NCBI GenBank assembly: GCA_017398945.1
Contig: JAFQES010000018.1
Span: forward strand, 74,494-138,493
DNA length: 64,000 nucleotides
Direction: 5' to 3'
DNA from: Bacilli bacterium
GTDB lineage: Bacteria; Bacillota_I; Bacilli_A; RF39; UBA660
Shown: piece by piece, positions 33,168-48,323 of the stretch
Numbering within the stretch: the stretch's first letter is position 1
Layout of the letters: each line of letters opens with the position of its first letter
Notes under the pieces: model-generated
The model's database searches: none
Seen by the model: the letters and a program-made list of their open reading frames with translations, nothing else
Told to the model about the DNA's origin: nothing
Program-made: the position numbers and the translations under genes

Positions 33168-34379
33168 CTAAGAGAAATTAAACATTAGCCAATTAGGCTT
33201 AAATATCATTAAAATTCCGATTAATAGCATGATTATCGCACCGATTAAATGTGAGTATTTTGTATATTTTGTGGTTAATCCACTTACTTTAAAACTAATC
33301 ATGGCTATAGTAAATATTATTAAATCATCTAACAAAAAGAACAAAATATAGACAATTAAGTATAATAAAGCTTTTATTCCTGTAATATTATTGATTGCTA
33401 AGATATTACTAAACACTACTGGAAGTCCTGCTGAACAAGCTAGTTCAACAATATTTACTGATATAGCTAAACCAACTACCCCGATAATTGATAAAAAAAT
33501 ACTCTTTTCACTCGTAAATTTCTTTATTTTAGCAAATGTCTTTTTTCTTTTACTTTCATCAACAATCCTACATCCAGCATCTTTTTTACATTCATTATAG
33601 TAATTTCTAAAGTTAAATAAACTTGCTAAAACAGCTAAAACACCAATAATTAATTGAACTATTTTTATGTTAGTAAAGTTTACAATAACAGTTAACCACG
33701 ACATCATGAATGCTAAATAAATCAAAGCGGAAGTTACTAAGAAAGTAATTCCAAGTATCCACATTTTTTTACGATCCTTCATATTGATTAACATGCTGAT
33801 TAAAAATATCAACACCCACATTGCGCAAGGATTAAAGCCATCAACTAAACCAATAACTGCACTTGCAAGCAAAATACTTACCTTTTTAGGATTAATCTCA
33901 CCTAATAATGGTATTTTTATATTAGATTCATCAATTGTTATCTTTTCTTTTTCATAATATTCATCGATATTATCTTTAGTAATCTTTTTATTTAAGATTT
34001 TATCAACAAAATCAATATAAGTCCCCTCTTGGTATGCTTCAACTATTTTTTTTATCTCAGATGAGGTATCATCACTATATCCTACTATAGTTTTACTTCC
34101 AATTACGGTAAATGGAACATAAGGACTTGATTCATCAAAAACATCTTTAACTAAATCTAGTTTTTCAGCATTAACTTTATTGTAATTCACTTCAAAATAA
34201 TGAATTTTAATATTTTCTTCATTTTTATACTCATTTAAAAACTCTTTTTCACTTTGACAATGTGGACAATCTTTAGAATAAAATAAATAAATGTCAATTA
34301 ATTTTTGTTCATCAGCAAATCCTAATAAAGGAAATAATATGAATAAAAATAAACTAAATATATATACAACTTTTTTCAT
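33168..34379 (-). CDS. Secreted thioredoxin-like domain fused to a CcdA/DsbD-type thiol-disulfide membrane transporter
   Basis: Signal peptide, CPHC in the N-terminal domain, and a six-TM C-domain with GFNPCAMWVL and ELACSAGLP. Confidence 0.65.
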   Translation of the reverse strand: MKKVVYIFSLFLFILFPLLGFADEQKLIDIYLFYSKDCPHCQSEKEFLNEYKNEENIKIHYFEVNYNKVNAEKLDLVKDVFDESSPYVPFTVIGSKTIVGYSDDTSSEIKKIVEAYQEGTYIDFVDKILNKKITKDNIDEYYEKEKITIDESNIKIPLLGEINPKKVSILLASAVIGLVDGFNPCAMWVLIFLISMLINMKDRKKMWILGITFLVTSALIYLAFMMSWLTVIVNFTNIKIVQLIIGVLAVLASLFNFRNYYNECKKDAGCRIVDESKRKKTFAKIKKFTSEKSIFLSIIGVVGLAISVNIVELACSAGLPVVFSNILAINNITGIKALLYLIVYILFFLLDDLIIFTIAMISFKVSGLTTKYTKYSHLIGAIIMLLIGILMIFKPNWLMFNFS

Positions 34380-34387
34380 AAAACCTC

Positions 34388-34642
34388 CTAATTTTCAATT
34401 ATATTTTTAATTTCTTCTAAAGTTTTTTCGCCATCAAGACGAGCAATTAAATCATCATTTCGATAAAACAAGATAACGGGTAAAATATCTTTTACATCGT
34501 ACTCTTTAACAATATCTTCATCCATATCATAATCGTATTCAATTATTTCAATATCAGGATAATCTTTTTTTAAAATATCCCAATATTTATGCATTTTTAA
34601 ACATGCTGAGCACCACATTGCCCCTATTTTAATTATTTTCAT
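34388..34642 (-). CDS. Thioredoxin-family protein
   Basis: 84 aa with GAMWCSACLKM (CxxC) and a thioredoxin-like layout. Confidence 0.75.
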   Translation of the reverse strand: MKIIKIGAMWCSACLKMHKYWDILKKDYPDIEIIEYDYDMDEDIVKEYDVKDILPVILFYRNDDLIARLDGEKTLEEIKNIIEN

Positions 34643-35762
34643 GAGCGACCTCTAATAATTTAGTTACTTCATTCTTGAATATCTTAATAAACTCATCAAG
34701 TTCTTCTTTAGTAGTATTATAAGACAAACTAATTCTGATACTGCTTTTAGCTCGTTCTTCATCATTTGTTAATGATAAAACAGATTTAGATAAAGAATTT
34801 GTGCTAGAGCATGCAGTTTGTGTTGAAATATATATTTCATGTTTTTCTAAAGCATGAAGTAAGCTTTCTGGTTTTACTCCAATAACACTTAAATTAAGGA
34901 TATGAGCTATACATTTTTCGTTACTATTTATTTTAACATTTTTATTAAATACTAATTCTTTTTGGAGATATTCATTAAATTTTCTAATTTGTTCATAACT
35001 TCCTAATTTCTCATAAGCTAAGCGTAGTGCTTTAGCCATTGAAGCAATTAGAGCAACTGTTGGAGTTCCACTACGATATTTTGTAGTACTTTTCCCGCCA
35101 TGAATTAAAGGAATTATATCGATTCCTTCTTTTTTTATTAACCCTCCAATACCTTTGATGCCATAGAATTTATGAGCAGAAAAGCTAGCTAAATCAACAT
35201 TACTTAGATCAATTTCTTTTTTTCCAACAATTTGGGTAATATCTGAATGGAAAAAGGCATTAGAATTTTCCTTTATAGTTTTACCTATCTCATTAATTGG
35301 TTGAATGATACCTATTTCACTATTTACTGCTCCGATACTTACTAATATAGTATCTTTTTTTAATAATGATTTTAAATGTTCTAAGTTAACTAGACCATTA
35401 CTATCACTATCTACAAATTCAACTTCATATCCTAGAGTTTGAAGATAACCAATTGGGCCATATATAGAAGAATGTTCAAATTTCGTTGTAATTATATGTT
35501 TACGATTAGGATATTTTAAACATATCCCTTTTATCACTGTATTATTTGATTCACTTGATCCACTTGTATAAATAATTTCTGATTCTTTAACTTTTAAAAT
35601 ATCTGCTATTTGCTTATTGGCTGCATCAATTAAGTCTTTGCTTTTACTACCTAAATCATGTAATGAATTGGGATTACCAATAAATTCATTTGTAACTTTA
35701 CAAAATGTATCTAATACATCTTTATGTACTGGAGTTGTTGCTGAATAATCCAAATATATCAT
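34629..35762 (-). CDS. Cysteine desulfurase (NifS/IscS-like, class V aminotransferase)
   Basis: MIYLDYSATTP..., PLP-lysine region SFSAHKFYGIKGIG, and RSGTP. Promoter TTAACA-17-TATAAT lies upstream. The track start at 35837 is an extension. Confidence 0.9.
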   Translation of the reverse strand: MIYLDYSATTPVHKDVLDTFCKVTNEFIGNPNSLHDLGSKSKDLIDAANKQIADILKVKESEIIYTSGSSESNNTVIKGICLKYPNRKHIITTKFEHSSIYGPIGYLQTLGYEVEFVDSDSNGLVNLEHLKSLLKKDTILVSIGAVNSEIGIIQPINEIGKTIKENSNAFFHSDITQIVGKKEIDLSNVDLASFSAHKFYGIKGIGGLIKKEGIDIIPLIHGGKSTTKYRSGTPTVALIASMAKALRLAYEKLGSYEQIRKFNEYLQKELVFNKNVKINSNEKCIAHILNLSVIGVKPESLLHALEKHEIYISTQTACSSTNSLSKSVLSLTNDEERAKSSIRISLSYNTTKEELDEFIKIFKNEVTKLLEVAHENN

Positions 35763-35833
35763 AATATCGCCTTCTTTTATAAATTGTAATATTATTATAC
35801 TATAAAATAAGTGTATTGTTAATAAATTTGCCC

Positions 35834-35858
35834 ACAAAAAAACCCAATTAGGGTTTTA
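35834..35858 (-). terminator. Rho-independent terminator closing the Tad-like/pilin-like gene block
   Basis: The minus strand reads aaaaccc-taatt-gggtttt followed by further Ts, 34 nt after the stop of 35892..36308. Confidence 0.65.
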
Positions 35859-35891: not shown

Positions 35892-36308
35892 TTAATTTCC
35901 GTTATTATTTTCATCAGTTTTTTCGTTATATGTTGCATCTTTAGCAGATTCTACAGCGGTTTTACAAGCTCCATCTTTTTTATTAGGATTAGTAATACAA
36001 GCTTGACATATTTTATAGTCTTTTTCAACATCATCAAATCCTATTACAATTCCAAAAATAAAACTTACTAAGAATGGTAAGAAGAAAATTACTACTCCAG
36101 CAATCGCTCTTTTAACTAATGAACTTGTAGCATTTTTAATAGCCTTATCATCATTAGCAACTACTGCCTTTCCTAAATCCATCATACCAAAAATAATTAA
36201 TAATAGTGGAATTGCTATTTTAAATACATATAAAACATATCCTACAAATTGCCATATAGGTGATGTTCTTGTACAAAATTGAGTTACCTCTGCAAGAATA
36301 TTTAACAT
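35892..36308 (-). CDS. VirB2-like (pilin-like) two-TM protein, paralogue of 5760..6134
   Basis: IAIPLLLIIFGMMDLGKAVVANDDKAIKNATSSLVKRAIAGVVIFFLPFLV aligns residue-for-residue with the T4SS-operon protein. The Cys-containing tail is ICQAC...GAC. Confidence 0.5.
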   Translation of the reverse strand: MLNILAEVTQFCTRTSPIWQFVGYVLYVFKIAIPLLLIIFGMMDLGKAVVANDDKAIKNATSSLVKRAIAGVVIFFLPFLVSFIFGIVIGFDDVEKDYKICQACITNPNKKDGACKTAVESAKDATYNEKTDENNNGN

Positions 36309-36333
36309 CAAAATCTCTCCTTCTCTGCATATA

Positions 36334-36362
36334 ATTTTATCTAAATTATCTTATTTTGTCAA
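36334..36362 (-). promoter_or_regulatory. SigA-type promoter for the pilin-like gene (TTGACA-17-TAAAAT)
   Basis: The minus strand reads TTGACAaaataagataatttagaTAAAAT, then GAAGGAGAG and ATG. It lies immediately after the TadZ-like stop. Confidence 0.5.
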
Positions 36363-36368
36363 TATATA

Positions 36369-37364
36369 TCACTTAAACAAGCCAAATAGTTTGCTTTTTC
36401 CACCATTAGGATTTTTAAGCTTTGCAAATCCTAGTGCTATTCCAAATTCATCCATAACTTTATGATGATCTTTTTTATCATCGATATATGGTATGTTAAA
36501 GAAAACTTTACTATTACTTTCGTATTCAAAATCACTAACATCTTTATTACTTAAAATACTTCTATTTAAAACTACTTTTTTATCTTTTAATTTATCAAAC
36601 ACTTTAGGATCTTCTCTAATAAGCTTATTTAATTTTATGATTCCTGGTTCAATTAAATACACAACATCTGTACATCCAGTTTCACTACCATCATCCCCTA
36701 AGTCAACCAAAATAGCTTCTAAATCTTGATGCATTGCTACAAAAGCAGCAAATTCTAGCGTACTAATACTTTTTAATGATTCATCAGAAAAAAATGCAAA
36801 GTCATTTTTATCAAGTTCTACTGCTACAACTTTGTACGCCTGTTCTAAATGTTTTTTTAGCATATATACTAAAGTTGTTGATCCAGCATGGGATGTAACA
36901 TTTTTAAAACCAATCACTCTCGTCTTCATCGACCCAAAAACTCCGCCAATACCATTCATATCAGGAACTTGTGATGCTACACCTTCCATATTATGATAAC
37001 TTGCAACATCTTTATATGTATTTGGATTATCAATTAAAAATTTAATGGCATCTAAGTTACGGGTAAAGTTATAAATTCCCATTGAGACTAATTGAGAAAG
37101 ATACATAGGCGCATTAGCTTCTTCTGAATCATCTAAAAGAATAATAACTTTATTCATATCAAAACTAACTGAAAGTTCTTGAATAACAGCTATTTGTTTA
37201 TAATCTTTTATAGCTGTAATATCTAAAATCATTTTATTATAAAAAAAATTATTAAATTGATTAGCTAACTCACCTGGAGTAAATTCGCCATTAATGCTTT
37301 TTATTACATCTACATCTAAAGTTGTTAGCATTGCTTGGTATTTATTTGAAACTATTACATTCAT
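36369..37364 (-). CDS. tadZ: TadZ/CpaE-like protein (receiver-like N-domain plus degenerate ParA/MinD-type domain)
   Basis: The C-domain RVIGFKNVTSHAGSTTLVYMLKKHLEQAYKVVAVELD has ParA/MinD spacing, but the P-loop is SHAGSTT instead of KGGxGKT. The N-terminal ~120 aa are CheY-like in pattern. Context is the Tad-like operon. Confidence 0.55.
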   Translation of the reverse strand: MNVIVSNKYQAMLTTLDVDVIKSINGEFTPGELANQFNNFFYNKMILDITAIKDYKQIAVIQELSVSFDMNKVIILLDDSEEANAPMYLSQLVSMGIYNFTRNLDAIKFLIDNPNTYKDVASYHNMEGVASQVPDMNGIGGVFGSMKTRVIGFKNVTSHAGSTTLVYMLKKHLEQAYKVVAVELDKNDFAFFSDESLKSISTLEFAAFVAMHQDLEAILVDLGDDGSETGCTDVVYLIEPGIIKLNKLIREDPKVFDKLKDKKVVLNRSILSNKDVSDFEYESNSKVFFNIPYIDDKKDHHKVMDEFGIALGFAKLKNPNGGKSKLFGLFK

Positions 37365-37376
37365 TTTTATTCCTCT

Positions 37377-37865
37377 TTAATCAAATTGATCCTTTCTATC
37401 TATCATATCTGAAGTCTTTCCTTTAACGGTAAATCTGGCAATATCACCAAGAATAGGAACATTAAAACTATAAAATAGTGTTACTTCATAATTGACTCTT
37501 GTTAAACTATCATTAAATCCTTGTTTTCTTTCTTGTTCTATACAATAAAAATAATTTTCATTTTCAGTTACATTTTGAGCATTTATATCATTATAATCAT
37601 TTATTCCTAACATAGGGTTCTCGGTCGGATTATTTTGATCAACGCATCTTCCCATAGTCATGTATCCAGAGTTTCTTAAATAATTATTTATTATTTCAGC
37701 AGATACATCTGTATATCCTTGGTATTTTTCTATTATCGATATAACTTCGTTTTTTACTTTAAATACCTTTGAGTATGTTATAGTTAATGTTAGGAAAGCA
37801 ACAAATAACAAAATGAACCCTATCATTAATTGTAAAGTCCATGTTGAGCCATAAACGTCTTTCAT
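37377..37865 (-). CDS. TadE/TadF-like pseudopilin candidate
   Basis: 162 aa starting MKDVYGSTWTLQLMIGFILLFVAFLTL. It is a paralogue of 37876..38349 (shared VFKVKNEVISIIEK and a C-terminal beta-strand region ending FTVKGKTSDMI). Confidence 0.5.
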   Translation of the reverse strand: MKDVYGSTWTLQLMIGFILLFVAFLTLTITYSKVFKVKNEVISIIEKYQGYTDVSAEIINNYLRNSGYMTMGRCVDQNNPTENPMLGINDYNDINAQNVTENENYFYCIEQERKQGFNDSLTRVNYEVTLFYSFNVPILGDIARFTVKGKTSDMIDRKDQFD

Positions 37866-37875
37866 AACAAACCTC

Positions 37876-38349
37876 CTATATCATTGGTTTTGTATCACCT
37901 TTTATAGTTAAATTAAAAATCGAGCGAATAAGGGGTATTTCTAAATGATAAAAGGTTTTTATTTGATAATAATACATAGGTGCCCCTAATGTTGCTGATG
38001 CACTATTTACTTTTCTTACACAAAAGGCTGCAGCTCCGCTTGCAATATTTCCTCGTTCATCAAATCCTACCCATTCTGCGTCACCATCAAAATCTGAGTT
38101 ACAATTACCATTTATTCTATAACCTATTTCTTCTAATTCTTCAGTTACTTCTTCAGTAAAATATATATCATCTGCTAAATCAGTAACTTCCGTTAGTCCA
38201 GCACCATTTCGTTCTAATATTCTAATTAAACTATTTTTTACATTAAAAGCTTTTGTTTGATTAATTGACAAACACATATATCCAGCAAATAAAATAACAA
38301 AAAAGATTACTATCATAAATAACCAGTTACCACCAATAGCTTCTTTCAA
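37876..38349 (-). CDS. TadE/TadF-like pseudopilin candidate
   Basis: 157 aa starting MKEAIGGNWLFMIVIFFVILFAGYM, with the C-terminus YYYQIKTFYHLEIPLIRSIFNLTIKGDTKPMI. Confidence 0.5.
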   Translation of the reverse strand: MKEAIGGNWLFMIVIFFVILFAGYMCLSINQTKAFNVKNSLIRILERNGAGLTEVTDLADDIYFTEEVTEELEEIGYRINGNCNSDFDGDAEWVGFDERGNIASGAAAFCVRKVNSASATLGAPMYYYQIKTFYHLEIPLIRSIFNLTIKGDTKPMI

Positions 38350-38359
38350 TTTTGTTCAC

Positions 38360-38590
38360 CTACCCTTTATATGCACAATCGAAAGTATTACCTGGATTGC
38401 TTTCCATATAACACTCACATACACCTGTAGATTCATTACAACTTGTACATATTGCATCACTACAATTAGCGGAATCTTGTATTCCTGTTTTAATAGCTGG
38501 CCATATCACCACAGAAAAAAGAGCCACTAGACCAGCTACGGCTAAAACAATTATTACTGTTAAATTAAGTTCACTAATGGCTTCTTTCAT
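38360..38590 (-). CDS. Small pilin-like protein (candidate fibre subunit), Cys-rich
   Basis: 76 aa starting MKEAISELNLTVIIVLAVAGLVALFSVVIWPAIK, then 6 Cys in the last 34 aa. Confidence 0.5.
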   Translation of the reverse strand: MKEAISELNLTVIIVLAVAGLVALFSVVIWPAIKTGIQDSANCSDAICTSCNESTGVCECYMESNPGNTFDCAYKG

Positions 38591-38599
38591 TATTTATTC

Positions 38600-38872
38600 C
38601 TATTCTTCTAAACAATTTCGAGTATAATCTCTATTATTATAGTGAGCTGTACACTCAAAATGAGTACATTCAACAGTTCCTTCTCCATTAGCTCCAACTC
38701 CAGCATCAGCTGAGCTATAGTTTCCGTTTGAATTAACACTACTACAAGCCGTACTTAAAAGTAAATTAGCTTGAATATTTGGCCAAACAAACATTGTAAA
38801 TAATAATCCTACTGCAGCAATTGCTACTACAGTAATTACTGTCATATTTAATTCTCCTGTTGCTTCTTTCAT
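38600..38872 (-). CDS. Small pilin-like protein (candidate major subunit), Cys-containing
   Basis: 90 aa starting MKEATGELNMTVITVVAIAAVGLLFTMFVWPNIQ, then 4 Cys. It is preceded by a near-consensus promoter. Confidence 0.5.
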   Translation of the reverse strand: MKEATGELNMTVITVVAIAAVGLLFTMFVWPNIQANLLLSTACSSVNSNGNYSSADAGVGANGEGTVECTHFECTAHYNNRDYTRNCLEE

Positions 38873-38907
38873 TTATATATCATCTCCTATTTTTAATCTA
38901 TATTTTT

Positions 38908-38936
38908 ATTATACATATTTTTTAATTTAATATCAA
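38908..38936 (-). promoter_or_regulatory. Internal near-consensus SigA promoter (TTGATA-17-TATAAT) in front of the pilin-like genes
   Basis: The minus strand reads TTGATAttaaattaaaaaatatgTATAAT, in the only sizeable (80-nt) gap within the operon. Confidence 0.55.
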
Positions 38937-38952
38937 TATTTTAAATTATATT

Positions 38953-39741
38953 TTACATATTCATCATTTGTAAAACTGCTAATACTAGCAAAATCATAAC
39001 TCCAACTCCAGTAGTTACTAACATTTGCATTGTTTTACTTTCCATTTTTTCCAAACGTTCTTTATATCTAGTCTCTCTGGCTTTTTGTTGAAGATTAGAA
39101 ATTGTTTTAGAAAAAGTCATTAATTGTTCTTGTTTTCTTTCTTGTCTCCCTAAACTTAAACGATATAGTAATCTCATCATACGCATTGAATCTCTAACTG
39201 GATAATTTCTAGCAAAATCCATATATGGTTCAATAGTATCATTACCAGCATTAATTTCATTTATCATTTGTTGTAATCCATCTTTAAAAATTGCTGGTGC
39301 ATCATTCATTGACTTACCTATAGCAACAGGAACAGTATAATGTTGGATTAAAATTTCTAAACTTTTTAAATAATAAGGAAGCATTGAATCTATTTTGTGC
39401 AAATGTGATTTATGATAGTTTTTTATAGATATGTAGTCCCATTTAAAAATAGCAAATGCTCCTATTAAAGATATAACTACTGATATAGCACTAATATCTT
39501 TTATCATAAATAACATTATTAGTATAAAGATCAAAAAAGCATTTTTTATTCTTTTGGCAAATAATATATCTGGACTTACTCCATCACCATATTTAGCTCT
39601 AACATAAAAATCCCAATCGTCTTCTTTTAATCTTCTAAATAACATTTCATTGTCAGCAAATAATTTATTGAGATCTAATCTTCCGGTGTAACTCATTATA
39701 AAGAAGACAATAATCGCTATAATAATAATTTCTATTTGCAT
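38953..39741 (-). CDS. TadC-like platform protein (T2SS-F-type domain)
   Basis: 262 aa with N-terminal and central TM segments, a cytoplasmic helical domain (LPYYLKSLEILIQHYTVPVAIGKSM...) and a C-terminal TM segment. It overlaps the upstream gene by 1 nt. Confidence 0.55.
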   Translation of the reverse strand: MQIEIIIIAIIVFFIMSYTGRLDLNKLFADNEMLFRRLKEDDWDFYVRAKYGDGVSPDILFAKRIKNAFLIFILIMLFMIKDISAISVVISLIGAFAIFKWDYISIKNYHKSHLHKIDSMLPYYLKSLEILIQHYTVPVAIGKSMNDAPAIFKDGLQQMINEINAGNDTIEPYMDFARNYPVRDSMRMMRLLYRLSLGRQERKQEQLMTFSKTISNLQQKARETRYKERLEKMESKTMQMLVTTGVGVMILLVLAVLQMMNM

Positions 39742-40634
39742 TATTCTACCCCCACATCTTCATTATAATATTTTACACCTTTAATTAAAAAGATAGCATT
39801 TATTATGATAATGGCATGAAGAATAATCTGAACATAAACTTTTTCTAATAATTCAACGTAATTTTCAGAACCTAGTAAAAATTGCATAACTAAAACTAAC
39901 AAAAATAAAACAAAACCAAAAGTTAAAAATTTTCGATAGAATGTTTTTCTATCCATTTGATCTCGATAGACACCTTCAACTAGGGTATCAATATCCATAG
40001 CCATATTTTCTAAGGATTCTCCAGAGTCTCTTGCTCCTTCTTTAGTGATTTGTAAGAATAATTGATGCATATTTTTTACCATATAAAATGGGTATTTACT
40101 ATTAAAATATTCGATTGATTCATCAATGGTACCATTTTTATATGACATATCTATCATATTTTTTAAATCTCTTAAAACAGGATCTTCAATAATACCAGAA
40201 TCTCTAACTCCTTCTAAGGATTTAACAAAACTCTGTGTTGTATTAAATTCCATTATAACGTTAGTCGTATATACTTGAATTTGTTCAAAAATGTATTCAC
40301 TATATAACCTTTGACTTCTTAAATAAGCAAGATATGGAATAAAAGCAATTGCTACCCCAGCATAAACTATTGCCCATAAGATACTATAGAAATAAAAGTA
40401 TGAAATACCACCTGCTAATCCTCCAAATAAAACTACTTGTAATACATATTGTTTTTTAGTATATTGAAAACCTAATTCTTTTGTTTTTTGATTTACTTCT
40501 TTGAAAGTATATGGAGCATATTTTTCATATACATCAATAGCCTTCTTAGAAGCATCCTTGTAAGCTTGTTGACCATTACCAGTTCTATATAACATTACAA
40601 AAGCTGCAATTGCAAGTAATAAAATTAGCTCCAT
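39741..40634 (-). CDS. TadB-like platform protein (T2SS-F-type domain)
   Basis: 297 aa with the same TM/helical-domain/TM layout. It directly follows the ATPase gene. Confidence 0.55.
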   Translation of the reverse strand: MELILLLAIAAFVMLYRTGNGQQAYKDASKKAIDVYEKYAPYTFKEVNQKTKELGFQYTKKQYVLQVVLFGGLAGGISYFYFYSILWAIVYAGVAIAFIPYLAYLRSQRLYSEYIFEQIQVYTTNVIMEFNTTQSFVKSLEGVRDSGIIEDPVLRDLKNMIDMSYKNGTIDESIEYFNSKYPFYMVKNMHQLFLQITKEGARDSGESLENMAMDIDTLVEGVYRDQMDRKTFYRKFLTFGFVLFLLVLVMQFLLGSENYVELLEKVYVQIILHAIIIINAIFLIKGVKYYNEDVGVE

Positions 40635-40649
40635 TTATTAACCTTCTTT

Positions 40650-41786
40650 CTATAATGATTCTATATTGTTAGAAATCAATTGAGTTTCTAAATTGTTTTG
40701 TTGACTATTATCTTCTACTGCTTCAGCAGCTGTTATATGAAGAGGATTTTCGTCTAAAATAACACCTTGCGCTCCCATATATCTTCTTAAATACTCAGTT
40801 GGATTATTAAAAGATATCGTTCCATCTAATCCCTTTTTAAATAAGATATTAGAACCTGCTTCATTGTTATCATCAACAAAGAACTCACATACTTCAACTA
40901 TTTCTCTTTGAAATCTACCTAATTCTTTGCTTAAATAACCTTTTACATGAACCCCAATTTGAACATATCGATGAATTGATTTTAAAAATTGGTCAATATC
41001 TTGATTACTTTCTAATAAACTGTACATACGCATCGGAATATTTTTGGCACTGTCTGAGTGAATAGTAGAAATTATGTTATGTCCAGAAGAAATTGAGTTT
41101 CTTACAGCCATTACAGCTTCTCCACTACGAACTTCGGAAAGTAAAATCCATCGAGGATTCTGTCTCATACATGTTACCAATACATCTGAATATGAAGCGA
41201 TATTATTAGTTTTCATTGCAACAATATCACGCATTGGAAATATTTTGTCTAAGTGTAATTCTAGTGTATCCTCAATAGTAATAATTTTTTCATTTTCCTT
41301 TGTGTTACTAGCTAAGTATTTTACCAATTCGGTTTTACCTGAACCAGTTTCTCCACTTACTATAATATTGCAATGTCCAATAACACATTGAATAAGAAAA
41401 TTATGTAATTCCTCTGTTACATATTTTTCGTCTAATAATTTTTCTTTATTTAATCTAATTTTGGCTGGAGTTTTACGTATAACTAACGCTGTTCCATTTG
41501 TAGCAATTGAGTCATGTACAAAGTTCATACGTAACTCAGCACTTTCAGCATCCAAAAAAGGATGAGCCATATTAAACGTCTTACCCATAACATTAGCACA
41601 TTGAAAGGCTAACTTATCAATTAAGGGATCATTTATTTCTGGTCTTTCAACTTTATAAACACCTTTGTCTAAAGACTTTAACCAAATTTGCCCCCCATTG
41701 GTATATGAAACGTCTGTTATATTGTCATCCTCTAAAAACTCTTTTAACGGACCAAAATCGATTTGGGAAAATATTGCATCTCTCAT
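40650..41786 (-). CDS. tadA: TadA/CpaF-type secretion ATPase (T2SS-E/VirB11 superfamily)
   Basis: Walker A SGETGSGKTE, Asp box IITIEDTLEL, MRQNPRWILLSEVRSGEA, His box STIHSDSA, and the N-terminal NITDVSYTNGGQIWL motif. Confidence 0.8.
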   Translation of the reverse strand: MRDAIFSQIDFGPLKEFLEDDNITDVSYTNGGQIWLKSLDKGVYKVERPEINDPLIDKLAFQCANVMGKTFNMAHPFLDAESAELRMNFVHDSIATNGTALVIRKTPAKIRLNKEKLLDEKYVTEELHNFLIQCVIGHCNIIVSGETGSGKTELVKYLASNTKENEKIITIEDTLELHLDKIFPMRDIVAMKTNNIASYSDVLVTCMRQNPRWILLSEVRSGEAVMAVRNSISSGHNIISTIHSDSAKNIPMRMYSLLESNQDIDQFLKSIHRYVQIGVHVKGYLSKELGRFQREIVEVCEFFVDDNNEAGSNILFKKGLDGTISFNNPTEYLRRYMGAQGVILDENPLHITAAEAVEDNSQQNNLETQLISNNIESL

Positions 41787-41800
41787 GGTCTTACCTCTTT

Positions 41801-42598
41801 TTAATTTCCAACTACTGCAGAATTTGCTTCTATCATGTTTTTTAAATATAAATTTACGATATTTTCTTTTTGTTCAGTTATTTCTGAGTACGGTACTTCT
41901 TTCGGAACCGGTATAAGTTCAAATGAATATGTACTTAACATAGTCGCTTTTGTTAATAACTCAAAATTTGCTTTAGAAACAACCGTAATTATGTATTTCG
42001 GAGATGAACCTTCATCACCAGCCGTTGTACTCCATTTTGTATCAACTACATCTATTACTTCCAAGTTTTCCATAAATGGCGCAAATATTACTTTACCAGT
42101 TTCATCTTTCCCTTGTAAATATAAGTCGATAGCATTCCCTGGTGCAATGGAATTTCCGTGTGTTGTATCTAAATCAACATCTAACATAAATAACTTGTAA
42201 TCTTTTTTTAAATTTTTATATAATTTTTGATCAGCTTTTTCTGATTTAGCAACCAGATCATCAGTACATAGCAAAGAACCAGCTGTCAAACTATGATCAA
42301 AATTTACAAAAAAGAATTCGTTGTTACCATCTTTTATTTGCGATAAATTTGTAACTAAATTTTTATATGTTTCGGTTAATTTTTTATTAACAGTAACCTT
42401 ACCTAACATATCTTCTGTTAATTGCGTATTACTTCCTACGGCTTCTTTAACATAATATACTTGAATCGTTGCAACGCTTTGATTTACCCGATAATTATAC
42501 CCAACATATAAAACGATAATCCCTGCTAATACACCTAAAATTGTTACAGTGTTTTTATTTGCTATAAATCTTTTTAAATTATTTAATAAATTACCCAT
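41801..42598 (-). CDS. cpaB: CpaB/RcpC-like pilus assembly protein (N-terminal TM, SAF-like and beta-clip domains)
   Basis: TM segment TVTILGVLAGIIVLYVG, then IQVYYVKEAVGSNTQLTEDMLGKVTV (SAF-like), and LFMLDVDLDTTHGNSIAPGNAIDLYL...LEVIDVVD...YIITVVSKANFELLTKA (RcpC-like). Confidence 0.65.
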   Translation of the reverse strand: MGNLLNNLKRFIANKNTVTILGVLAGIIVLYVGYNYRVNQSVATIQVYYVKEAVGSNTQLTEDMLGKVTVNKKLTETYKNLVTNLSQIKDGNNEFFFVNFDHSLTAGSLLCTDDLVAKSEKADQKLYKNLKKDYKLFMLDVDLDTTHGNSIAPGNAIDLYLQGKDETGKVIFAPFMENLEVIDVVDTKWSTTAGDEGSSPKYIITVVSKANFELLTKATMLSTYSFELIPVPKEVPYSEITEQKENIVNLYLKNMIEANSAVVGN

Positions 42599-42613
42599 TT
42601 TTATTCCTTTCTA

Positions 42614-43027
42614 CTACTTTTCAAATTCTCCATGGTTTATTACTGCATCTATTTTTTCAACTATATCAAAACTATCTGCATCACCCATAACGTTAAATGA
42701 ATTTGATTGACTCGAAACTCTTACACTAACTTTTGGAGGTGCCTCATAAATATCATAAAAACTTATGGTATAAGTACTACTTAATGATACTGAATCAGCA
42801 AATCTTCTGATGAAAGATTCTATAAACTTCTCTTTGTTAATTCTTACTTCTTTCCAATCACGATAATAAGTATAATCAATAGCATCTAACATAGAAGCTT
42901 GAGCTATTTCTTTTACTAAGTAATAGTCTTGACTTTTTGTAGTTGTAATATTATTTATAAGCATCATTACTACTACAATAAATATACCTAGTAAAACTAA
43001 CCAATAACCCCAATAGGTATCTTTCAT
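42614..43027 (-). CDS. Pilin-like/pseudopilin candidate
   Basis: 137 aa starting MKDTYWGYWLVLLGIFIVVVMMLINN, with the same MK(E/D)-type short leader as the four genes at 37.4-38.9 kb. Confidence 0.45.
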   Translation of the reverse strand: MKDTYWGYWLVLLGIFIVVVMMLINNITTTKSQDYYLVKEIAQASMLDAIDYTYYRDWKEVRINKEKFIESFIRRFADSVSLSSTYTISFYDIYEAPPKVSVRVSSQSNSFNVMGDADSFDIVEKIDAVINHGEFEK

Positions 43028-43043
43028 TATTTACACACTCCTT

Positions 43044-46007
43044 CTATCTGAATGCTGGTCCTTCTTGTGATTTTTTACCCTTGTAAGCGGACCATATACG
43101 TTCTGATACATCTAATTCATCAAGATTGTCTTCAATTTTATTATTATCTAATTCTCCTGCTAAAGTATCAAGATAAGTACTTGTACAAATTACATAATCA
43201 TTTGTTAAATTTATACAATTTAAAGTATTATTTAAATAACCTCCAGCATCTTCAACAGAGTCATTATAATCACGAATTCTATTAATATCATTTGGTTCTA
43301 ATGTAATACTGTAAACTAAATTATCCTCAGTATATGCTTCTTCGCCTGAATTTTTAATATTAGCTAAAGCCGCTTGTCCTTTCTCAGTTCTCCAATTTGC
43401 TGCCAAGCCTTCTGTATTCGGAGTTGCTGTTGCAACAACATCTTCAACATTATTTTCTTCTTTTGCTTCAACTGAATTATAAGCTAAAGCATTTTTATGA
43501 ACATTATTTAAGTATGCTACATCTGCTCCTGCAAAAGGATTCATTAGCGAAATTGGTGAAAAATCTATTGCCAAGCCATTAGAAATATCAAATACACATC
43601 CTACGCTACGACATTGCCAAATACATTCATCATCACAATCAGGATCTCCCCAACACATTCCTTCGGGATCACATCCCCAATCACAGTCTGTACATCCGTT
43701 AACGTTATAAGGACAAATAAGATCTACTTCATCCAAACCTAATTCATAAGCAACTGCTTCTAGTCTACCTGCTTTACATTTGCCGCCATGAAGATGGTGT
43801 CCATAATTACTAACAATAAATTGATATGAGTATTGACCTTGAGGTGTTTCATAATCTACTGGCCATCCTTCAGTATATACTGTTCCAGGCATCTCTTCAC
43901 ATTGATCTTTAGTATAATTATAATATGATTCCCCTTTGTTGTAATCATTACAAATTCCAACAGAATTTAATTTGTAAGTATTTTTTATAGTAGCTGAACC
44001 ACTCGTATAGTTAGCATCAGTAAATTCTTTAGTCTTTTCAGAACCAATACCTAAAGAAACCGATGTTTTTTTGCTTGTTTTGTTACTTTGATATTTTCCA
44101 GTAGTAGATTTATAAGTAGTAGTAGGTGTATTAGTTGTTACCTCTACATTTACAAGTTCTAAATCCTTGCTAGTTATTCTTAACCATTCTCCATCTGTAT
44201 ATGTAAAACTTACACTTGGATGACAATTTCCTGATTTAGATACTGCTTTTTCTAAATTTCCAAAGTCCCAACTATTACATTGTTCATACAATCCAACTTG
44301 TTCATTTGAATAATTAATATATTCAGCTTTTTTTGCTGCAATAGTCGCGTCATCTGCCTTTATTGTTTGAGCAACACATGTTCCTACAGCTACCTCTTCA
44401 GTTATTGTGCCTGATTTAGTAGGGTCATTTACTATTTCAACTGCCAAACTACTTCCTTTTCTTCTAGCAACATATTCTTTGGTAGTTGTAGTTTTAGCTT
44501 CTTTAGTTTCTTTTGAGCCATCATCTAAAGTTTCTTTCCAAGTAGTACATGTTACAGTTGTTTCACTTAAAGTATTAGCATATTGTTGCGCTTTATTTAC
44601 TATGTTTTCCATTAATTTATCAATATAGTTTTCACCATAACATGAAATATGAGTTTCATCATAAGCTTCATCAGGTTCAAAATTAAAATACGACCCAGAT
44701 GTTATTAAATATTCATTACCATTTTTATCTAGTGTACTTAATGGCCCAGGTGATAAGAATTCGTAATCTTCTGTACAATAAATATCACAATATTCATTGG
44801 ATTTAATTGTTTCACCCATTATCATTTCAGTCGCCTTTAACGACGTTCCGGTTATATCTTCTTCACCAATAATACATGCATCAATAGATTCATCAGTTGA
44901 TGTATATTCATCTCCTTCAGTAACAGTAACAACTGTTTGCCCAAAACTATCACATAATCCACTAAATGCTCCTGGAACGCCACCAGATGAGTTGTCAGTG
45001 TATCCAGGTATTTCTCTACAGTCTTCATCTCCTGGATCATCAGGATCAGCACCACAATTTATTGGTTCACCAGAAGCTATATCTATAGTTGATTCTCCGC
45101 CTCCGTTACTTGTTTGGTCGCATCCCATATAATTTTGAGCTCCAGATCCTAAATTACAGTTATATTGAACTACTTTAGTACAAGCATTGGCTGCCCCACT
45201 ATAAGTAAGTGTTGCAGAATAAGTTCCACAATTTCCGCTTCCATCATCCTTTTTGGTTGCATTAAAACTTTTTGAAACTGAACCTGATACTTCTGTAGTA
45301 CCAGCACCTTCCAAATCTCCAGTAACCGTAAGTTTTGCTCCAGAAGGTACATTTGAACATGTTATTGTTACTTTACCATTAGCATTTTTAGCGCTACAGC
45401 TTGGCGCTTGAAATTGGGCCGGACTTCCTGTACCAGCTCCACTAGCCGAAATAGCTCCAGCCGCAAGATCTATAGCAGCAGTACCAATTTCATCAGTTTG
45501 GACGCCAAACTCACTAGCGCAATTTGCACCATAAGAACTTTTCTTACTTGTTAATCCTTCAGACATTTTATACCCAGCTTTTGATGATGCTTGAGATGCT
45601 GCAGAAATATATCCACATTGAGTGTTTACAACATCCTTACTAGAAGAATTCTGGAATCTAGAAGTTCCTGTGGCAGTAGAATAAATTCTCATCGCTAACG
45701 CCTTTGTTTCTTCATCAGCATTACTACTAAAAATGTAGGCCGCTCCAGCCGCTTGTTGCCCAGTTACTTCTTTTGAAGTACAAGATGCTCCACTAGTTGC
45801 AGTTACCTTTCCTGGATCAACACAGTATGCGCTTCCTCCATCTTCAAAATTAATTATTGTTGCCCCTCCAGCTTTATAACCATCATCTTTATAAAAATGA
45901 GTACTACTAACATCAGAATAATCAGAAACTTTTTTATCTGCGTTTGCCATCATTGGACAAACAAATAAAGTTAAAATAATTAATAAACTTAATATTTTCT
46001 TTTTCAT
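43044..46007 (-). CDS. Large secreted cysteine-rich protein (987 aa), function unknown
   Basis: Signal peptide MKKKILSLLIILTLFVCPMMANA. About 35 Cys by my count, including 9 in CPYNVNGCTDCDWGCDPEGMCWGDPDCDDECIWQCRSVGC. There are Gly/Ser/Ala/Thr-rich segments. No LPXTG motif or C-terminal TM segment is seen. Confidence 0.7.
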   Translation of the reverse strand: MKKKILSLLIILTLFVCPMMANADKKVSDYSDVSSTHFYKDDGYKAGGATIINFEDGGSAYCVDPGKVTATSGASCTSKEVTGQQAAGAAYIFSSNADEETKALAMRIYSTATGTSRFQNSSSKDVVNTQCGYISAASQASSKAGYKMSEGLTSKKSSYGANCASEFGVQTDEIGTAAIDLAAGAISASGAGTGSPAQFQAPSCSAKNANGKVTITCSNVPSGAKLTVTGDLEGAGTTEVSGSVSKSFNATKKDDGSGNCGTYSATLTYSGAANACTKVVQYNCNLGSGAQNYMGCDQTSNGGGESTIDIASGEPINCGADPDDPGDEDCREIPGYTDNSSGGVPGAFSGLCDSFGQTVVTVTEGDEYTSTDESIDACIIGEEDITGTSLKATEMIMGETIKSNEYCDIYCTEDYEFLSPGPLSTLDKNGNEYLITSGSYFNFEPDEAYDETHISCYGENYIDKLMENIVNKAQQYANTLSETTVTCTTWKETLDDGSKETKEAKTTTTKEYVARRKGSSLAVEIVNDPTKSGTITEEVAVGTCVAQTIKADDATIAAKKAEYINYSNEQVGLYEQCNSWDFGNLEKAVSKSGNCHPSVSFTYTDGEWLRITSKDLELVNVEVTTNTPTTTYKSTTGKYQSNKTSKKTSVSLGIGSEKTKEFTDANYTSGSATIKNTYKLNSVGICNDYNKGESYYNYTKDQCEEMPGTVYTEGWPVDYETPQGQYSYQFIVSNYGHHLHGGKCKAGRLEAVAYELGLDEVDLICPYNVNGCTDCDWGCDPEGMCWGDPDCDDECIWQCRSVGCVFDISNGLAIDFSPISLMNPFAGADVAYLNNVHKNALAYNSVEAKEENNVEDVVATATPNTEGLAANWRTEKGQAALANIKNSGEEAYTEDNLVYSITLEPNDINRIRDYNDSVEDAGGYLNNTLNCINLTNDYVICTSTYLDTLAGELDNNKIEDNLDELDVSERIWSAYKGKKSQEGPAFR

Positions 46008-46750
46008 AAAACACTTTCTCTCTTTCGTTTTATATTCACCACTACAATGGCAACCCCTGCAATAACGATTATAGAGCCTCCAGCAATAAATGCTACTTTA
46101 TGTTTTTTAACAAAATCCCCTATATTTTCGTACCATTTTTTATTCTCTTCTTTTTCTTTCTTTTCATTTTCTACTACTTCTAAGTATTCACTAATTTGTT
46201 CATATTGGTCAGCATATTCCATTTTGACAGTGATATACTTTTGACAAGGTAAATAATCAGTTATTCCTTCACACATTATTGTTTCATAAAAATCATTGTA
46301 CATTGGAGTAACTAGATAATTTGTAAAATATTTTTCATTCCTACAGTCGGTTTCATCTGAAGAATATATTTCAAATGTAAAATTAACTACATCATCTAAG
46401 TTATACCAATTTAAAGTATACATTCCATCGGTTGTATCTTTGTACCTAATGAATTTAACTTCATCGTTATAATCGTTCATAACTTTAACATATATTTCTT
46501 TCGTAATATTTGTAAAAATAATTTTAAAGTATTCTCGATATAGTTCAACTTCTCCAACAGTTTCATTTGTAGGAGCATATAAAGAAGAATCTACTTTTTG
46601 CGATGCTTCTTCATATACAGCTTTAACACTGCCAGCCACCTTACTTAATTCCACTTGTTTTTCATAAGAACATGCCGATGCAGCGTCTACTACATTTAGA
46701 TTTGTTAATGCAAGTATTCCAGCTAGTATTCCAACCACTTTTTTCTTCAT
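46004..46750 (-). CDS. Secreted protein with a C-terminal membrane anchor, first gene of the operon
   Basis: MKKKVVGILAGILALTNLNVVDA signal peptide, C-terminal TM segment VAFIAGGSIIVIAGVAIVVV, and an NIKRKRE tail. Its stop overlaps the next ATG (ATGA). Confidence 0.6.
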   Translation of the reverse strand: MKKKVVGILAGILALTNLNVVDAASACSYEKQVELSKVAGSVKAVYEEASQKVDSSLYAPTNETVGEVELYREYFKIIFTNITKEIYVKVMNDYNDEVKFIRYKDTTDGMYTLNWYNLDDVVNFTFEIYSSDETDCRNEKYFTNYLVTPMYNDFYETIMCEGITDYLPCQKYITVKMEYADQYEQISEYLEVVENEKKEKEENKKWYENIGDFVKKHKVAFIAGGSIIVIAGVAIVVVNIKRKRESVL

Positions 46751-46774
46751 AGTATACACCAACCTCTACATGTG

Positions 46775-46803
46775 ATTCTACCATAAATTAAAGAAGATAG
46801 CAA
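46775..46803 (-). promoter_or_regulatory. Promoter of the Tad-like operon (TTGCTA-17-TGgTAGAAT)
   Basis: The minus strand reads TTGCTAtcttctttaatttaTGgTAGAAT, about 25 nt upstream of the SD and ATG at 46750. Confidence 0.5.
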
Positions 46804-46876: not shown

Positions 46877-47548
46877 ATGATAGATGTTAAAGAAAAATCA
46901 AAAAATATTGGAAAGTTTTTAATAATTTTATTTTTATATTTTGCTTTATCTTATGTATTAGCTTTTGCTTTTCAAGAAGCTTTCAACTCAAAAAACAATT
47001 TAATAAATCAAACTAGTTCAATATTAGCAAGCCTATTTATATTATTAGTATTGGCACTTTTTCATATCCCGAAGATTATTAATGATTCTAGAAATTTAAC
47101 TAAAGATAATTTAAAATTAGCTTACAAAAATTGGTTAATTGGTTTAATTATAATGTATATTAGTAATACATTTATACTACTTATTAACAAAGATTTAGCT
47201 GCTAACGAAACCGCTAATCGCGCTATCTTAGAACAAGCACCTATATATGCAATTTTAGTTATGATAGTAATTGCCCCTATAACCGAGGAGATAATATTCA
47301 GATTATCACTAAAAAAAATTTTTAAAAGTAAATATACATACTGCTTCTTTTCCGGATTAATTTTTGGGCTTATGCATTTAACTTCAATTAAAGAAATATT
47401 ATTTATAGTTCCTTACGGAGCTTTGGGTTTTTTCTTCGCAAAAACTTTATATGATACTGATAACATTTTTGCTCCTACGATTACTCATATTACACATAAT
47501 GCAATGATCATATTTATTTTACTTGCCAGTAATTTTGTAGGTATTTAA
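46877..47548 (+). CDS. CPBP-family intramembrane glutamic endopeptidase (CAAX protease/Abi)
   Basis: Motifs ITEEIIFR, FGLMH and HITHN in a polytopic membrane protein. It is divergent from the Tad-like operon. Confidence 0.8.
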   Translation: MIDVKEKSKNIGKFLIILFLYFALSYVLAFAFQEAFNSKNNLINQTSSILASLFILLVLALFHIPKIINDSRNLTKDNLKLAYKNWLIGLIIMYISNTFILLINKDLAANETANRAILEQAPIYAILVMIVIAPITEEIIFRLSLKKIFKSKYTYCFFSGLIFGLMHLTSIKEILFIVPYGALGFFFAKTLYDTDNIFAPTITHITHNAMIIFILLASNFVGI

Positions 47549-47549
47549 G

Positions 47550-48323
47550 ATGAAGAAATATATAAAAATAGTATTATTTATCTTATTTTTTATTATTTTG
47601 GTAATAATGTTTGGCTTCTTAGAGACAAAACGTTTTAAAATAAAGGAATACAATATTATAGATAAATCTTTACCAAGTAGTTTTAACGGAATTAAAATAG
47701 TTCATTTCGGGGATATTTTATATGGGACTTCTATTAATAAAAATATGTTAAAAAAAATTATTAACGAAATAAATACTTTAAAACCAGATATAGTCATTTT
47801 TACTGGAGACTTATATCCAGAAGGTATTAAATTAACTAAAGATAACGAAAAAGACATAAAAAATATTTTAGGAAAAATTGATGCAAGTTTATATAAATAT
47901 GCTATTAAAGGAGATAATGATACTGATAATTATAATCATATTATGAGTGAAGCAGGTTTTATTTTATTAGATAATACCAAAGAAAAACTTTATTATAAAG
48001 GAAATACTCCAATAATTATTAGCAATACAACCTGTGAAGAAGATTTGTTTTCTATAAGATTAATCCATAAGCCTGATGATGTTGATAATTTAGATTTTAC
48101 TAACATTAATCTTATCATTGCTGGTCATAGTTTAAATGGACAAATTAGAATTCCTTTTTATGGCGGAGCCATAAAAAAAGAAGGTAGTAAGAAATATCTT
48201 GACGAGAAATATATGGTTAATAATATTCCATTTTATATTACCAACGGACTAGGAACAAACTCATTTAAATTTCGTCTATTTAATACACCTTCATTTAATT
48301 TATATCGTTTAACTAATTATTAG
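47550..48323 (+). CDS. Membrane-anchored metallophosphoesterase
   Basis: HFGDILYG, FTGDL, GDND and AGHSLNGQIR motifs, with an N-terminal TM segment. Confidence 0.75.
   Translation: MKKYIKIVLFILFFIILVIMFGFLETKRFKIKEYNIIDKSLPSSFNGIKIVHFGDILYGTSINKNMLKKIINEINTLKPDIVIFTGDLYPEGIKLTKDNEKDIKNILGKIDASLYKYAIKGDNDTDNYNHIMSEAGFILLDNTKEKLYYKGNTPIIISNTTCEEDLFSIRLIHKPDDVDNLDFTNINLIIAGHSLNGQIRIPFYGGAIKKEGSKKYLDEKYMVNNIPFYITNGLGTNSFKFRLFNTPSFNLYRLTNY

Follow-up and report, generated by a model that had tools for sequence, protein, structure and literature searches.

A candidate Tad-like filament operon with physical linkage to a type IV secretion system in a lineage of gut Bacilli

What is built by a compact operon of thirteen genes when standard libraries clearly recognize a single one of its products? 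This question is raised by a locus in a 64,000-nucleotide stretch of DNA (the window) from contig JAFQES010000018.1 of a Bacilli bacterium, in which thirteen tightly packed open reading frames (ORFs), designated g01 to g13, span positions 46762 to 35892 on the minus strand. An initial annotation, made from the sequence alone, described them as a Tad-like (type IVc pilus-type) operon of a kind that could not be placed in a described subtype. A renewed reading of the ORFs in the window confirmed the thirteen genes with their coordinates, as well as two overlaps, an ATGA at 46004-46007 (g01/g02) and a single nucleotide at 39741 (g06/g07). Two intergenic gaps are wider, with 80 nt (g07 to g08) and 57 nt (g12 to g13); the others measure 9-16 nt.

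Our answer is that the operon may encode an adhesin-presenting Tad-like filament that works together with a domesticated type IV secretion system (T4SS), a reading to which we assign a probability of roughly 55%. Tad-like type IV filaments of monoderms are already known as such. The machine predicted here would be of the monoderm Tad type (type IVc-like) and represent a Firmicutes-specific subfamily, not a canonical Flp/Tad system. By gene content, the window operon is a chromosomal and the most complete version of a module that has gone unrecognized in pLS20 and in Listeria, Lactococcus, pXO1 and Priestia plasmids. The locus can consequently be placed, contrary to the initial annotation, through its homology to pLS20 genes 34-40 and to other plasmid modules.

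In the literature that we searched, the plasmid genes appear as 'VirB11' and a set of unknowns, and no description of a pilus module was found. Nor did this literature contain an account of the Firmicutes subfamily (characterized by DUF5411, an ATPase clade of its own and strongly diverged TadB/C proteins), of the link that it constantly shows to large adhesins, thioester-type or other, and to Gram-positive T4SSs, or of the domestication of the module by an uncultured gut lineage as part of its core chromosome. Most of the thirteen proteins are 'hypothetical' in every database searched, despite thousands of homologues.

Components of the predicted machine

The product that is clearly recognized by standard libraries is g05 (40650-41786), a 378-residue secretion ATPase of the CpaF/VirB11 superfamily. 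The motifs GETGSGKTE, IITIEDTLEL and STIHSDSA are present in its translation, and it matches Pfam T2SSE above the cut-off (6e-29, 101 bits). Among PDB sequences, CpaF was the best match (1e-19), followed by VirB11 (6e-15) and FlaI (2e-14). In NCBIfam, the VirB11 (top), TadA-like and TrbB models scored about equally, all below their cut-offs. The hidden Markov model (HMM) of the g05 family gave 51-77 bits with VirB11 and TrbB versus 122-193 bits with ATPases of Firmicutes plasmids. In a small neighbor-joining tree (297 trimmed columns, 200 bootstraps), built without archaeal, PilB or GspE sequences, the window clade grouped with the Firmicutes plasmid ATPases, including the product of pLS20 gene 37, at 86-90% bootstrap, apart from VirB11 (99%), TrbB (100%) and proteobacterial CpaF (100%). 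On this tree, g05 belongs to a separate Firmicutes-specific clade that lies inside neither CpaF nor VirB11. The earlier call of a TadA/CpaF-type ATPase was thus correct with regard to the T2SSE domain and the closest solved relative, and finds no support in this small tree at the level of the clade. An ATPase inside VirB11 had been named as an outcome that would speak against a Tad-like operon; the tree leaves g05 outside both the VirB11 and TrbB clades.

The next two genes encode predicted polytopic platform proteins, g06 (39741-40634; 297 residues, TadB/T2SSF type) and its paralogue g07 (38953-39741; 262 residues, TadC/T2SSF type). Profile searches found no direct match for either protein in Pfam, NCBIfam or PDB sequences, and profiles limited to the lineage showed no similarity of g06 to g07 by hhalign. 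Their relationship became visible once the profiles were broadened with plasmid homologues (for g06, also with remote homologues): the two families then aligned along the helical T2SSF domain in the cytoplasm (98%, E 2e-13). Against a reference set of canonical TadB/TadC proteins from Ralstonia, Sphingobium and Streptomyces, the broadened profiles scored 91% (g06, E 1e-6) and 95% (g07, E 5e-8), and unrelated membrane families, used as negative controls, scored 3% or less. These profile-profile matches bear out the proposal of two TadB/TadC-like proteins. In addition, the g06 and g07 HMMs match the two genes that follow the ATPase on a plasmid of Priestia koreensis (4e-13 and 3e-16). The g06 homologue there is annotated as a 'T2SSF family protein' and matches Pfam T2SSF (3.4e-5), which provides a transitive link to this family. 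The HMMs also match pLS20 genes 38 and 39 (g07 versus gene 39, 3e-5). In a library of 1.84 billion proteins, 235 clusters matched as remote homologues of g06, and T2SSF was the only recurrent Pfam family. Some of these remote homologues, with 450-750 residues, resemble fused double platform proteins (P0430, P0442, P0444, P0447, P0459, P0463, P0495, P0496, P0501, P0503 and P0508-P0510) and recall the fused TadC-TadB of the TANB77 cluster discussed below.

Two further proteins may serve as accessory components. g04 (41801-42598), with 265 residues and an N-terminal transmembrane segment, is CpaB/RcpC-like, as had been suggested: TIGR03177 (1.7e-7) and RcpC (8e-5) match below their curated cut-offs, hhalign gave 94% against CpaB, and the family HMM matches a Priestia SAF protein (2e-33) and Ralstonia CpaB (4.5e-5). 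The single g04 sequence retrieved nothing from PDB sequences. g12 (36369-37364) is a 331-residue cytoplasmic two-domain protein and a TadZ-like candidate. An AlphaFold2 (AF2) model (pLDDT 76) combines a five-stranded α/β receiver-like N-terminal domain with a SIMIBI (ParA/MinD-like) C-terminal domain, and a Foldseek search of PDB returned ParA, MinD, BcsQ, HypB and SRP54 at E values of 2e-4 to 1e-3. The Walker A motif (P-loop) is degenerate (G.KN.T.HAG.TT). More than 6000 homologues of g12 were found, all of them without annotation, and its profile found nothing among PDB sequences. The modeled domain architecture would be that of TadZ, which makes g12 a candidate only, i.e., a ParA-fold protein in the right context. 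The initial annotation was right in placing a TadZ-like gene last. Scans of g01, g02 and g06-g12 with Pfam and NCBIfam returned nothing usable.

Five products are candidate pilins. All of them, g03 (42614-43027, 137 residues), g08 (38600-38872, 90 residues), g09 (38360-38590, 76 residues), g10 (37876-38349, 157 residues, TTG start) and g11 (37377-37865, 162 residues), have an MK[ED]xxG N-terminus and one hydrophobic segment; the start is MKDTYWG in g03 and MKEAIGG in g10, each followed by the transmembrane segment. The small protein g08, which has four Cys residues in its C-terminal part, is the candidate major subunit. Its near-invariant N-terminus, MKEATGELNMTV, is about 99% conserved across the family formed with its paralogue g09, a protein with six Cys residues (hhalign of the pair, 99.8%). 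The minor-pilin-like proteins g10 and g11 are likewise paralogues (99.9%). g03 matches Pfam DUF5411 (6e-56) and is homologous to the product of pLS20 gene 36 and to a Priestia DUF5411 protein. g11 is of the DUF4320/TadE-like type: its HMM matches a 118-residue Listeria protein (5e-7), a Sphingobium TadE (3e-4) and the product of pLS20 gene 40 (1e-3), and hhalign gave 70% against DUF4320 and was negative against the TadE set. A further match of the g11 HMM is to the N-terminus (88 residues) of a BspA leucine-rich-repeat protein from Lactococcus (3e-7), whose predicted architecture is that of a minor-pilin-adhesin fusion. An hhalign match between g03 and g10 (100% over 257 columns) was discarded as an artefact, as the local family alignments contain over-extended ORFs. 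The initial annotation had recognized two proteins of ~80 residues and three of ~140-160 residues as pilin-like; the shared N-terminus and transmembrane segment agree with this, and a relationship to Flp did not emerge.

Two side observations concern the small pilins. In the window copy of g09, position 6 is Ser (MKEAIS, 38573-38590), where about 99% of the family have Gly (MKEATG), and this copy may be poorly processed if cleavage follows that residue. In pXO1 (L098, 9956-10438), two genes of 67/68 residues (MLTKMKNWLKNEDSQLSSENG-MLIALAVIIVLVIGPFVWKAIQ) resemble Flp-type pilins and have an FVW(P/K)xIQ stretch in common with g08 and g09 (hhalign is weak, 14%).

Plasmid relatives, head genes and the linked T4SS

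In a plasmid collection, the best relatives of g05 were found on a Priestia plasmid, on pLS20 (gene 37) and on Lactococcus, Listeria and pXO1 plasmids. The Priestia order is an SLH protein, a 993-residue Ig-like protein, DUF5411, SAF, a ParA-like protein, the ATPase, T2SSF, its paralogue and DUF4320. pLS20 and Listeria pLM1686 have a thioester adhesin, small genes, DUF5411, the ATPase, two polytopic proteins and a DUF4320-like protein, followed by the T4SS, and pXO1 has an SLH protein, a 783-residue protein, an AAA/ParA-like protein, the ATPase, a platform protein and the two Flp-like genes, there listed with 67 residues each. The homology to pLS20 genes 34-40 is established: genes 34 (Tie), 36, 37, 38, 39 and 40 correspond to g02, g03, g05, g06, g07 and g11, in a like order, with the weakest matches being those of g02 with Tie (63 columns, 93.8%) and g11 with gene 40 (1e-3). 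To the pLS20 module, the window locus adds the CpaB-like and TadZ-like proteins, two small pilins, a second DUF4320-like pilin, g01 and a VirB2-like pilin. T4SS genes lie downstream both in pLS20, where the module precedes VirD4, VirB6 and VirB4 (PMC8557374), and in relatives of the window locus. In contrast to the plasmid module, the window locus is chromosomal, located among housekeeping genes and lineage-wide, with no relaxase nearby; the housekeeping neighbors in the window and the lack of a relaxase beside the T4SS argue against a self-transmissible element. The product of pLS20 gene 37 has been published as 'VirB11' of the conjugation operon (PMC8557374). More generally, papers on pLS20 and on the B. 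cereus group name this ATPase VirB11 and describe Gram-positive systems as devoid of pili.

The distribution of the operon was examined with the ATPase in GTDB species genomes, which yielded 545 relatives; synteny and identity comparisons refer to the best 80 of these (ATPase identity 73-88%). The order g01 to g13 is kept in the best 80 wherever the contig is long enough, and it recurs in about 60-80 species-level genomes, metagenome-assembled genomes (MAGs) of uncultured gut 'Bacilli bacterium'. The arrangement is therefore far beyond chance, and a search for the same 13-gene synteny, which the initial annotation had proposed, was successful. The exact g05 protein is present on 10 metagenome contigs, with identical gene order. 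The best 80 are gut MAGs of human, rabbit, goat, buffalo and chicken origin, among them Candidatus Onthocola and Clostridium sp. CAG:609; NCBI lists the relatives as Bacilli incertae sedis. Median cross-species identity is 81% for g05, 70% for g06, 67% for g07 and 59% for g12, i.e., for the motor parts, versus 26% for g02, 32% for g01, 35% for g10, 38% for g11 and 40% for g09 among the exposed parts; g08 reaches 52% because its N-terminus is near-invariant. A conserved motor with variable exposed parts fits a surface organelle. In the one related locus that includes them (L007), the flanking housekeeping genes are 56-65% identical to those of the window, compared with 88% for the ATPase and 82% for g06. 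A motor that is more conserved than neighboring housekeeping genes indicates that the operon is clearly important to this widespread uncultured gut group. Judging from this distribution, the synteny is inherited across the lineage and the operon is part of the core chromosome.

The head of the operon had been described as a membrane-anchored 248-residue protein and a secreted 987-residue protein with ~35 Cys residues, and this description was accurate. g01 (46004-46750) is a membrane protein of type I, in which a signal peptide precedes an extracellular domain with four Cys residues and a C-terminal transmembrane anchor; it was found in 66 related loci. g02 (43044-46007) has a Sec signal peptide and no anchor, and 35 of its 36 Cys residues lie beyond the signal peptide. 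The slot between g01 and g03 holds a single giant ORF of 891-1972 residues in at least 55 of the 65 related loci in which it could be delimited, and in the remaining 10 the script listed no ORF of 150 residues or more. Although the mean column identity of the g02 family is 13%, Cys62, within a YCxDP motif (YCVDP in the window), is retained by 90% or more of 69 proteins, and the equivalent of Gln357 by 81% of the family. The hhalign match of the g02 N-terminal profile was to pLS20 Tie together with a Listeria plasmid thioester protein (E 1.7e-7), and it places Cys62 on the cysteine of VYCIDP, which is Cys68 of Tie. Mutation of this thioester cysteine inactivates the adhesin (PMC8092201). TED and TED_2 are the only recurrent Pfam matches among the 69 N-termini (five and three members, respectively); the single g02 sequence found nothing among PDB sequences. 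We regard g02 as a candidate divergent thioester-domain (TIE-like) adhesin. Tie itself lacks a sortase signal, a lipobox and any other known anchor, and its importance is mainly for mating in liquid (PMC8092201).

The last gene, g13 (35892-36311), encodes a VirB2-type T4SS pilin of 138/139 residues with a two-transmembrane hairpin and a Cys-containing tail. Its match to Pfam T4SS_pilin (PF18895) is just below the cut-off (8e-5), with two hydrophobic segments present, and 27 of 34 members of its family match this model (best 4.6e-7). Relatives carry one to five tandem copies of g13, and most of those with a contig that extends beyond g12 have one T4SS pilin gene or an array of them after it. 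As had been noted initially, a paralogue of g13 (5760-6134; 47% identity, E 2e-27) heads a T4SS operon. This operon occupies positions 1-6134 on the minus strand and runs off the left end of the window, continuing at L100, 12515-20356. The pilin gene is followed by those for a 427-residue protein with a pilin-like C-terminus, an 832-residue VirB6-like polytopic protein, a 108-residue VirB3-like protein and VirB4. The latter is present as two ORFs (187 residues, TraC-like; 594 residues, AAA_10), a split that is kept in relatives (L057, L052). Beyond the window, there are genes for a SpoIID-domain hydrolase, a 289-residue protein and VirD4, and then housekeeping genes. By its components (VirB3, VirB4, VirB6, hydrolase and VirD4), the T4SS is complete and of the Gram-positive type; no relaxase was found next to its operon. 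The physical linkage is established by relatives: in 7 of the 30 that have enough downstream sequence, g13 is immediately followed by T4SS genes in the same orientation, so the window arrangement, split with a pilin copy at each break, looks derived. In functional terms, g13 belongs to the T4SS, probably with its own promoter, and not to the Tad-like core; its earlier inclusion as the thirteenth gene of a Tad-like operon was right as to its VirB2-like character and needs correction as to its function.

Proposed function and competing explanations

Several known systems help to define what is particular to this locus. A Tad locus on a plasmid of the monoderm Streptomyces (L099) has the order SAF-TadZ-ATPase-TadB-TadC-Flp-TadE-TadE-TadG, which is near that of the window, and the two share a CpaB/SAF protein, the ATPase, two single-domain T2SSF proteins, small pilin(s), larger pseudopilins and the lack of a secretin. 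The window locus differs in the clade of its ATPase, in platforms that are too divergent for Pfam, in pilins without the Flp motif and without Flp or TadE similarity by hhalign, in the last position of the TadZ-like gene, and in the thioester adhesin at its head and the T4SS pilin at its tail. The non-canonical gene order emphasized by the initial annotation is therefore real for the TadZ-like gene, but much of it was due to a comparison with diderm loci. TANB77 gut Clostridia have a lineage-conserved, poorly annotated Tad-like cluster that has been read as a colonization pilus; this also occurs in uncultured gut Firmicutes and contains CpaB, TadZ/CpaE, TadA and TadB/C, with a series of pilin-like genes behind them (PMC11680825). 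It differs in a 640-residue ATPase with a transmembrane segment, a fused 693-residue TadC-TadB, two ParA-like genes and seven pilin-like genes of up to 621 residues, and no T4SS link or thioester adhesin was reported for it (PMC11680825).

Patescibacteria have chromosomal relaxase-less T4SSs with arrays of VirB2-like pilins (PMC12102498), and a review considers such arrays, or potential conjugative pili, unique to Patescibacteria among monoderms (PMC12857230). The likeness extends to an MPF-FATA-like T4SS, tandem T4SS_pilin arrays, a monoderm host with a reduced genome and a type IV filament system alongside; the window host, however, is of a Bacilli lineage, and its filament system is Tad-like and physically joined to T4SS genes. 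The thin type IVb pilus of IncI plasmids (R64) and the type IV pilus of PAPI-1 likewise place a filament machine beside a T4SS for donor-recipient contact, and differ in being diderm type IVb pili with PilQ/PilR-type components and no module-level homology (PMC12857230). IncI plasmids use their type IV pilus for liquid mating (PMC12857230). Together with the homology of the module to pLS20, these liquid-mating roles of Tie and of the IncI pilus mean that the literature supports a filament-adhesin reading indirectly (PMC8092201, PMC12857230).

In the mechanism that we propose, a hexameric g05 ATPase would power a platform of g06 and g07, and g04 and g12 would scaffold or position the machine. 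The platform would polymerize the small pilins g08 and g09, probably expressed from their own promoter, with the minor pilins g03, g10 and g11 probably priming the filament tip. The MK[ED]xxG leaders would presumably be recognized by a peptidase encoded elsewhere. The filament would present or retain the g02 adhesin, possibly with the membrane-anchored g01 as a partner, and g02 could make firm, possibly covalent, contact with another cell or with a host surface. This contact apparatus would cooperate with the relaxase-less VirB2/B3/B4/B6/D4 T4SS. The family and fold assignments, the synteny, the pLS20 homology and the T4SS linkage are observed; that a filament forms, displays the adhesin, has its leaders cleaved and cooperates with the T4SS is inferred.

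A number of observations weigh against this reading. The filament is a prediction from gene sequences. The T4SS does not adjoin the operon in the window or in 23 of the 30 relatives. g08 and g09 have no Flp match in Pfam and no hhalign similarity to three Flp proteins, hhalign detected no TadE similarity for g03 and g10, and the Flp motif G/XXXXEY is absent from the pilin N-termini, that of the small pilins reading MKEATG-ELNMTV without EY. The prepilin peptidase motif GxGD[VILAMF]K occurs in no frame of the 64-kb window, as the initial annotation had stated for this enzyme, and the annotations of the homologous plasmid loci list no such peptidase. hhalign found no sequence-profile similarity of g12 to five TadZ/CpaE proteins, and TadZ is missing among its top 50 Foldseek matches. 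The AF2 model of g07 is of low confidence (pLDDT 63), for which the close similarity of all available homologues (68% identity or more) is the probable reason, and a Foldseek search with it was uninformative. The ATPase clade comes from a small tree, as described above. Finally, the window g02 itself has no Pfam match, and the case for a thioester domain consists of the 63-column profile match and the conserved Cys and Gln.

If the T4SS were left out of the picture, the operon would encode a stand-alone Tad-like colonization pilus for mucus, epithelium or food particles, comparable to Bifidobacterium Tad pili, with the VirB2-like neighbor being accidental. The separation from the T4SS in the window and in 23 relatives, the promoter-like site of g13, the gut-dwelling lineage, a hypervariable adhesin and pilins that fit selection by host or phage, and the interpretation given to the analogous TANB77 cluster (PMC11680825) would all suit such a pilus. 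We nevertheless consider it rather unlikely: every characterized or annotated relative of the module lies in or beside a conjugation/T4SS operon (pLS20, pLM1686, pXO1), most relatives with a long enough contig have T4SS pilin genes, single or in an array, behind g12, and module and T4SS are contiguous and co-oriented in seven genomes. At the other extreme, the module could be an integral sub-assembly of the T4SS, with g05 as its VirB11 and a short pseudopilus or wall conduit in place of an extended fiber. That the closest studied homologue was published as VirB11 of the pLS20 operon (PMC8557374), that VirB11 has the top, though sub-threshold, NCBIfam score for g05 and that the module is physically linked to VirB3, VirB4, VirB6 and VirD4 are in keeping with this idea, which we find improbable because g05 falls outside the VirB11/TrbB clades with CpaF as its best solved relative, because VirB11 systems use none of the T2SSF-type platforms, CpaB or TadZ-like proteins that are present here, and because most Gram-positive T4SSs function, according to the literature, without VirB11.

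Type IV filament machines are versatile, and Tad-like pili take up DNA in Micrococcus. A competence-type filament for DNA uptake is accordingly another alternative, as is a piston resembling a type II secretion system that exports g02, a secreted protein without an anchor; in the genomes of the window lineage, which we take to be reduced, import of DNA or nucleotides could be useful. Both variants appear very improbable, since the ORFs scanned around the operon include no ComEA/ComEC-like or nuclease genes, the ordinary Sec signal peptide of g02 makes a dedicated exporter unnecessary, and homologous plasmid modules serve donor-recipient attachment (PMC8092201). An adhesin-presenting filament that cooperates with the T4SS thus remains our preferred explanation.

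A broader proposal, which we regard as possible but doubtful, is that the 'VirB11' proteins of Firmicutes are motors of an unrecognized Tad-like pilus that carries or retains thioester adhesins, serving as a mating filament in pLS20 and domesticated as a core contact organelle in gut Bacilli. If true, pLS20-type conjugative plasmids of Gram-positive bacteria would, against the textbook view, assemble a filament for mating, and a reduced-genome lineage of gut Bacilli would have domesticated a Tad-like pilus, a covalent adhesin and a relaxase-less T4SS with VirB2-like arrays. The result would be a core cell-contact organelle, analogous to the pair of type IV pilus and T4SS that Patescibacteria need for epibiotic growth. 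The homology to pLS20 bears on how Gram-positive donors, described as devoid of pili, locate and retain recipients in liquid, and on how the anchor-less Tie stays on the cell. As pLS20 resides in the genetically tractable Bacillus subtilis, the prediction of a Tad-like filament with a thioester adhesin on display is directly testable. The linked relaxase-less T4SS with its VirB2-like arrays suggests that the restriction of potential conjugative pili in monoderms to Patescibacteria may be too narrow (PMC12857230).

Regulatory signals and neighboring genes

Three promoter-like sites on the minus strand were noted in the operon by consensus match alone. The site before g01 (46775-46803; TTGCTA-17-TAGAAT with a TG extension) had been offered as the promoter of the operon. 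It is weaker than two 11/12 matches, one in the 80-nt gap before the small pilin genes (38908-38936; TTGATA-17-TATAAT) and the other in the gap before g13 (36334-36362; TTGACA-17-TAAAAT). Such sites are not enriched (64 found versus 71 +/- 8 expected in shuffled sequence) and carry little weight, so the site before g01 is present and is weak evidence by itself. After g13, a hairpin with a T-run at ~35834-35858 on the minus strand (AAAACCC-TAATT-GGGTTTTTTT) is legible in the sequence by eye, as described initially, and was not flagged by a simple terminator scan.

The G+C content of the window is 23-35%, and the neighbors of the locus are ordinary chromosomal genes, including those for TyrRS, LeuRS, RNase Y, PFOR and FtsW. 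The LeuRS gene (24614-27049) lies behind a T-box leader (27472-27647, minus strand; Rfam RF00230, 97.6 bits), which points to ordinary regulation. Between the T4SS operon and the housekeeping genes, positions 7917-13308 contain two tandem Bro-N domain genes and a RhuM/Fic gene beside a P-type cation ATPase, a stretch that resembles mobile-element remnants or a defense locus.

Divergent from the operon (46877-48323, plus strand) are genes for a CAAX/Rce1-like intramembrane protease and a metallophosphoesterase, which adjoin it in 20 and 41 of 52 relatives, respectively. The protease was considered as the missing pilin peptidase and set aside in view of this limited adjacency. A CAAX protease also occurs in the conjugation operon of Listeria pLM1686 (L097, 12778-13428). 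The protease of the window is a possible, unproven candidate for pilin processing.

Directly downstream of the operon (33168-35837, minus strand) are genes for a class-V aminotransferase (NifS-like), an 84-residue thioredoxin (WCSAC) and a 403-residue protein in which a secreted thioredoxin-like domain (CPHC) is fused to a membrane domain of the CcdA/DsbD type. The thioredoxin and CcdA/DsbD genes could handle disulfides of the many Cys-rich exported proteins of the operon; their adjacency to it is kept only in the closest relative (L007). A conserved thioredoxin-like gene is also present in lactococcal conjugation clusters (PMC10221548).

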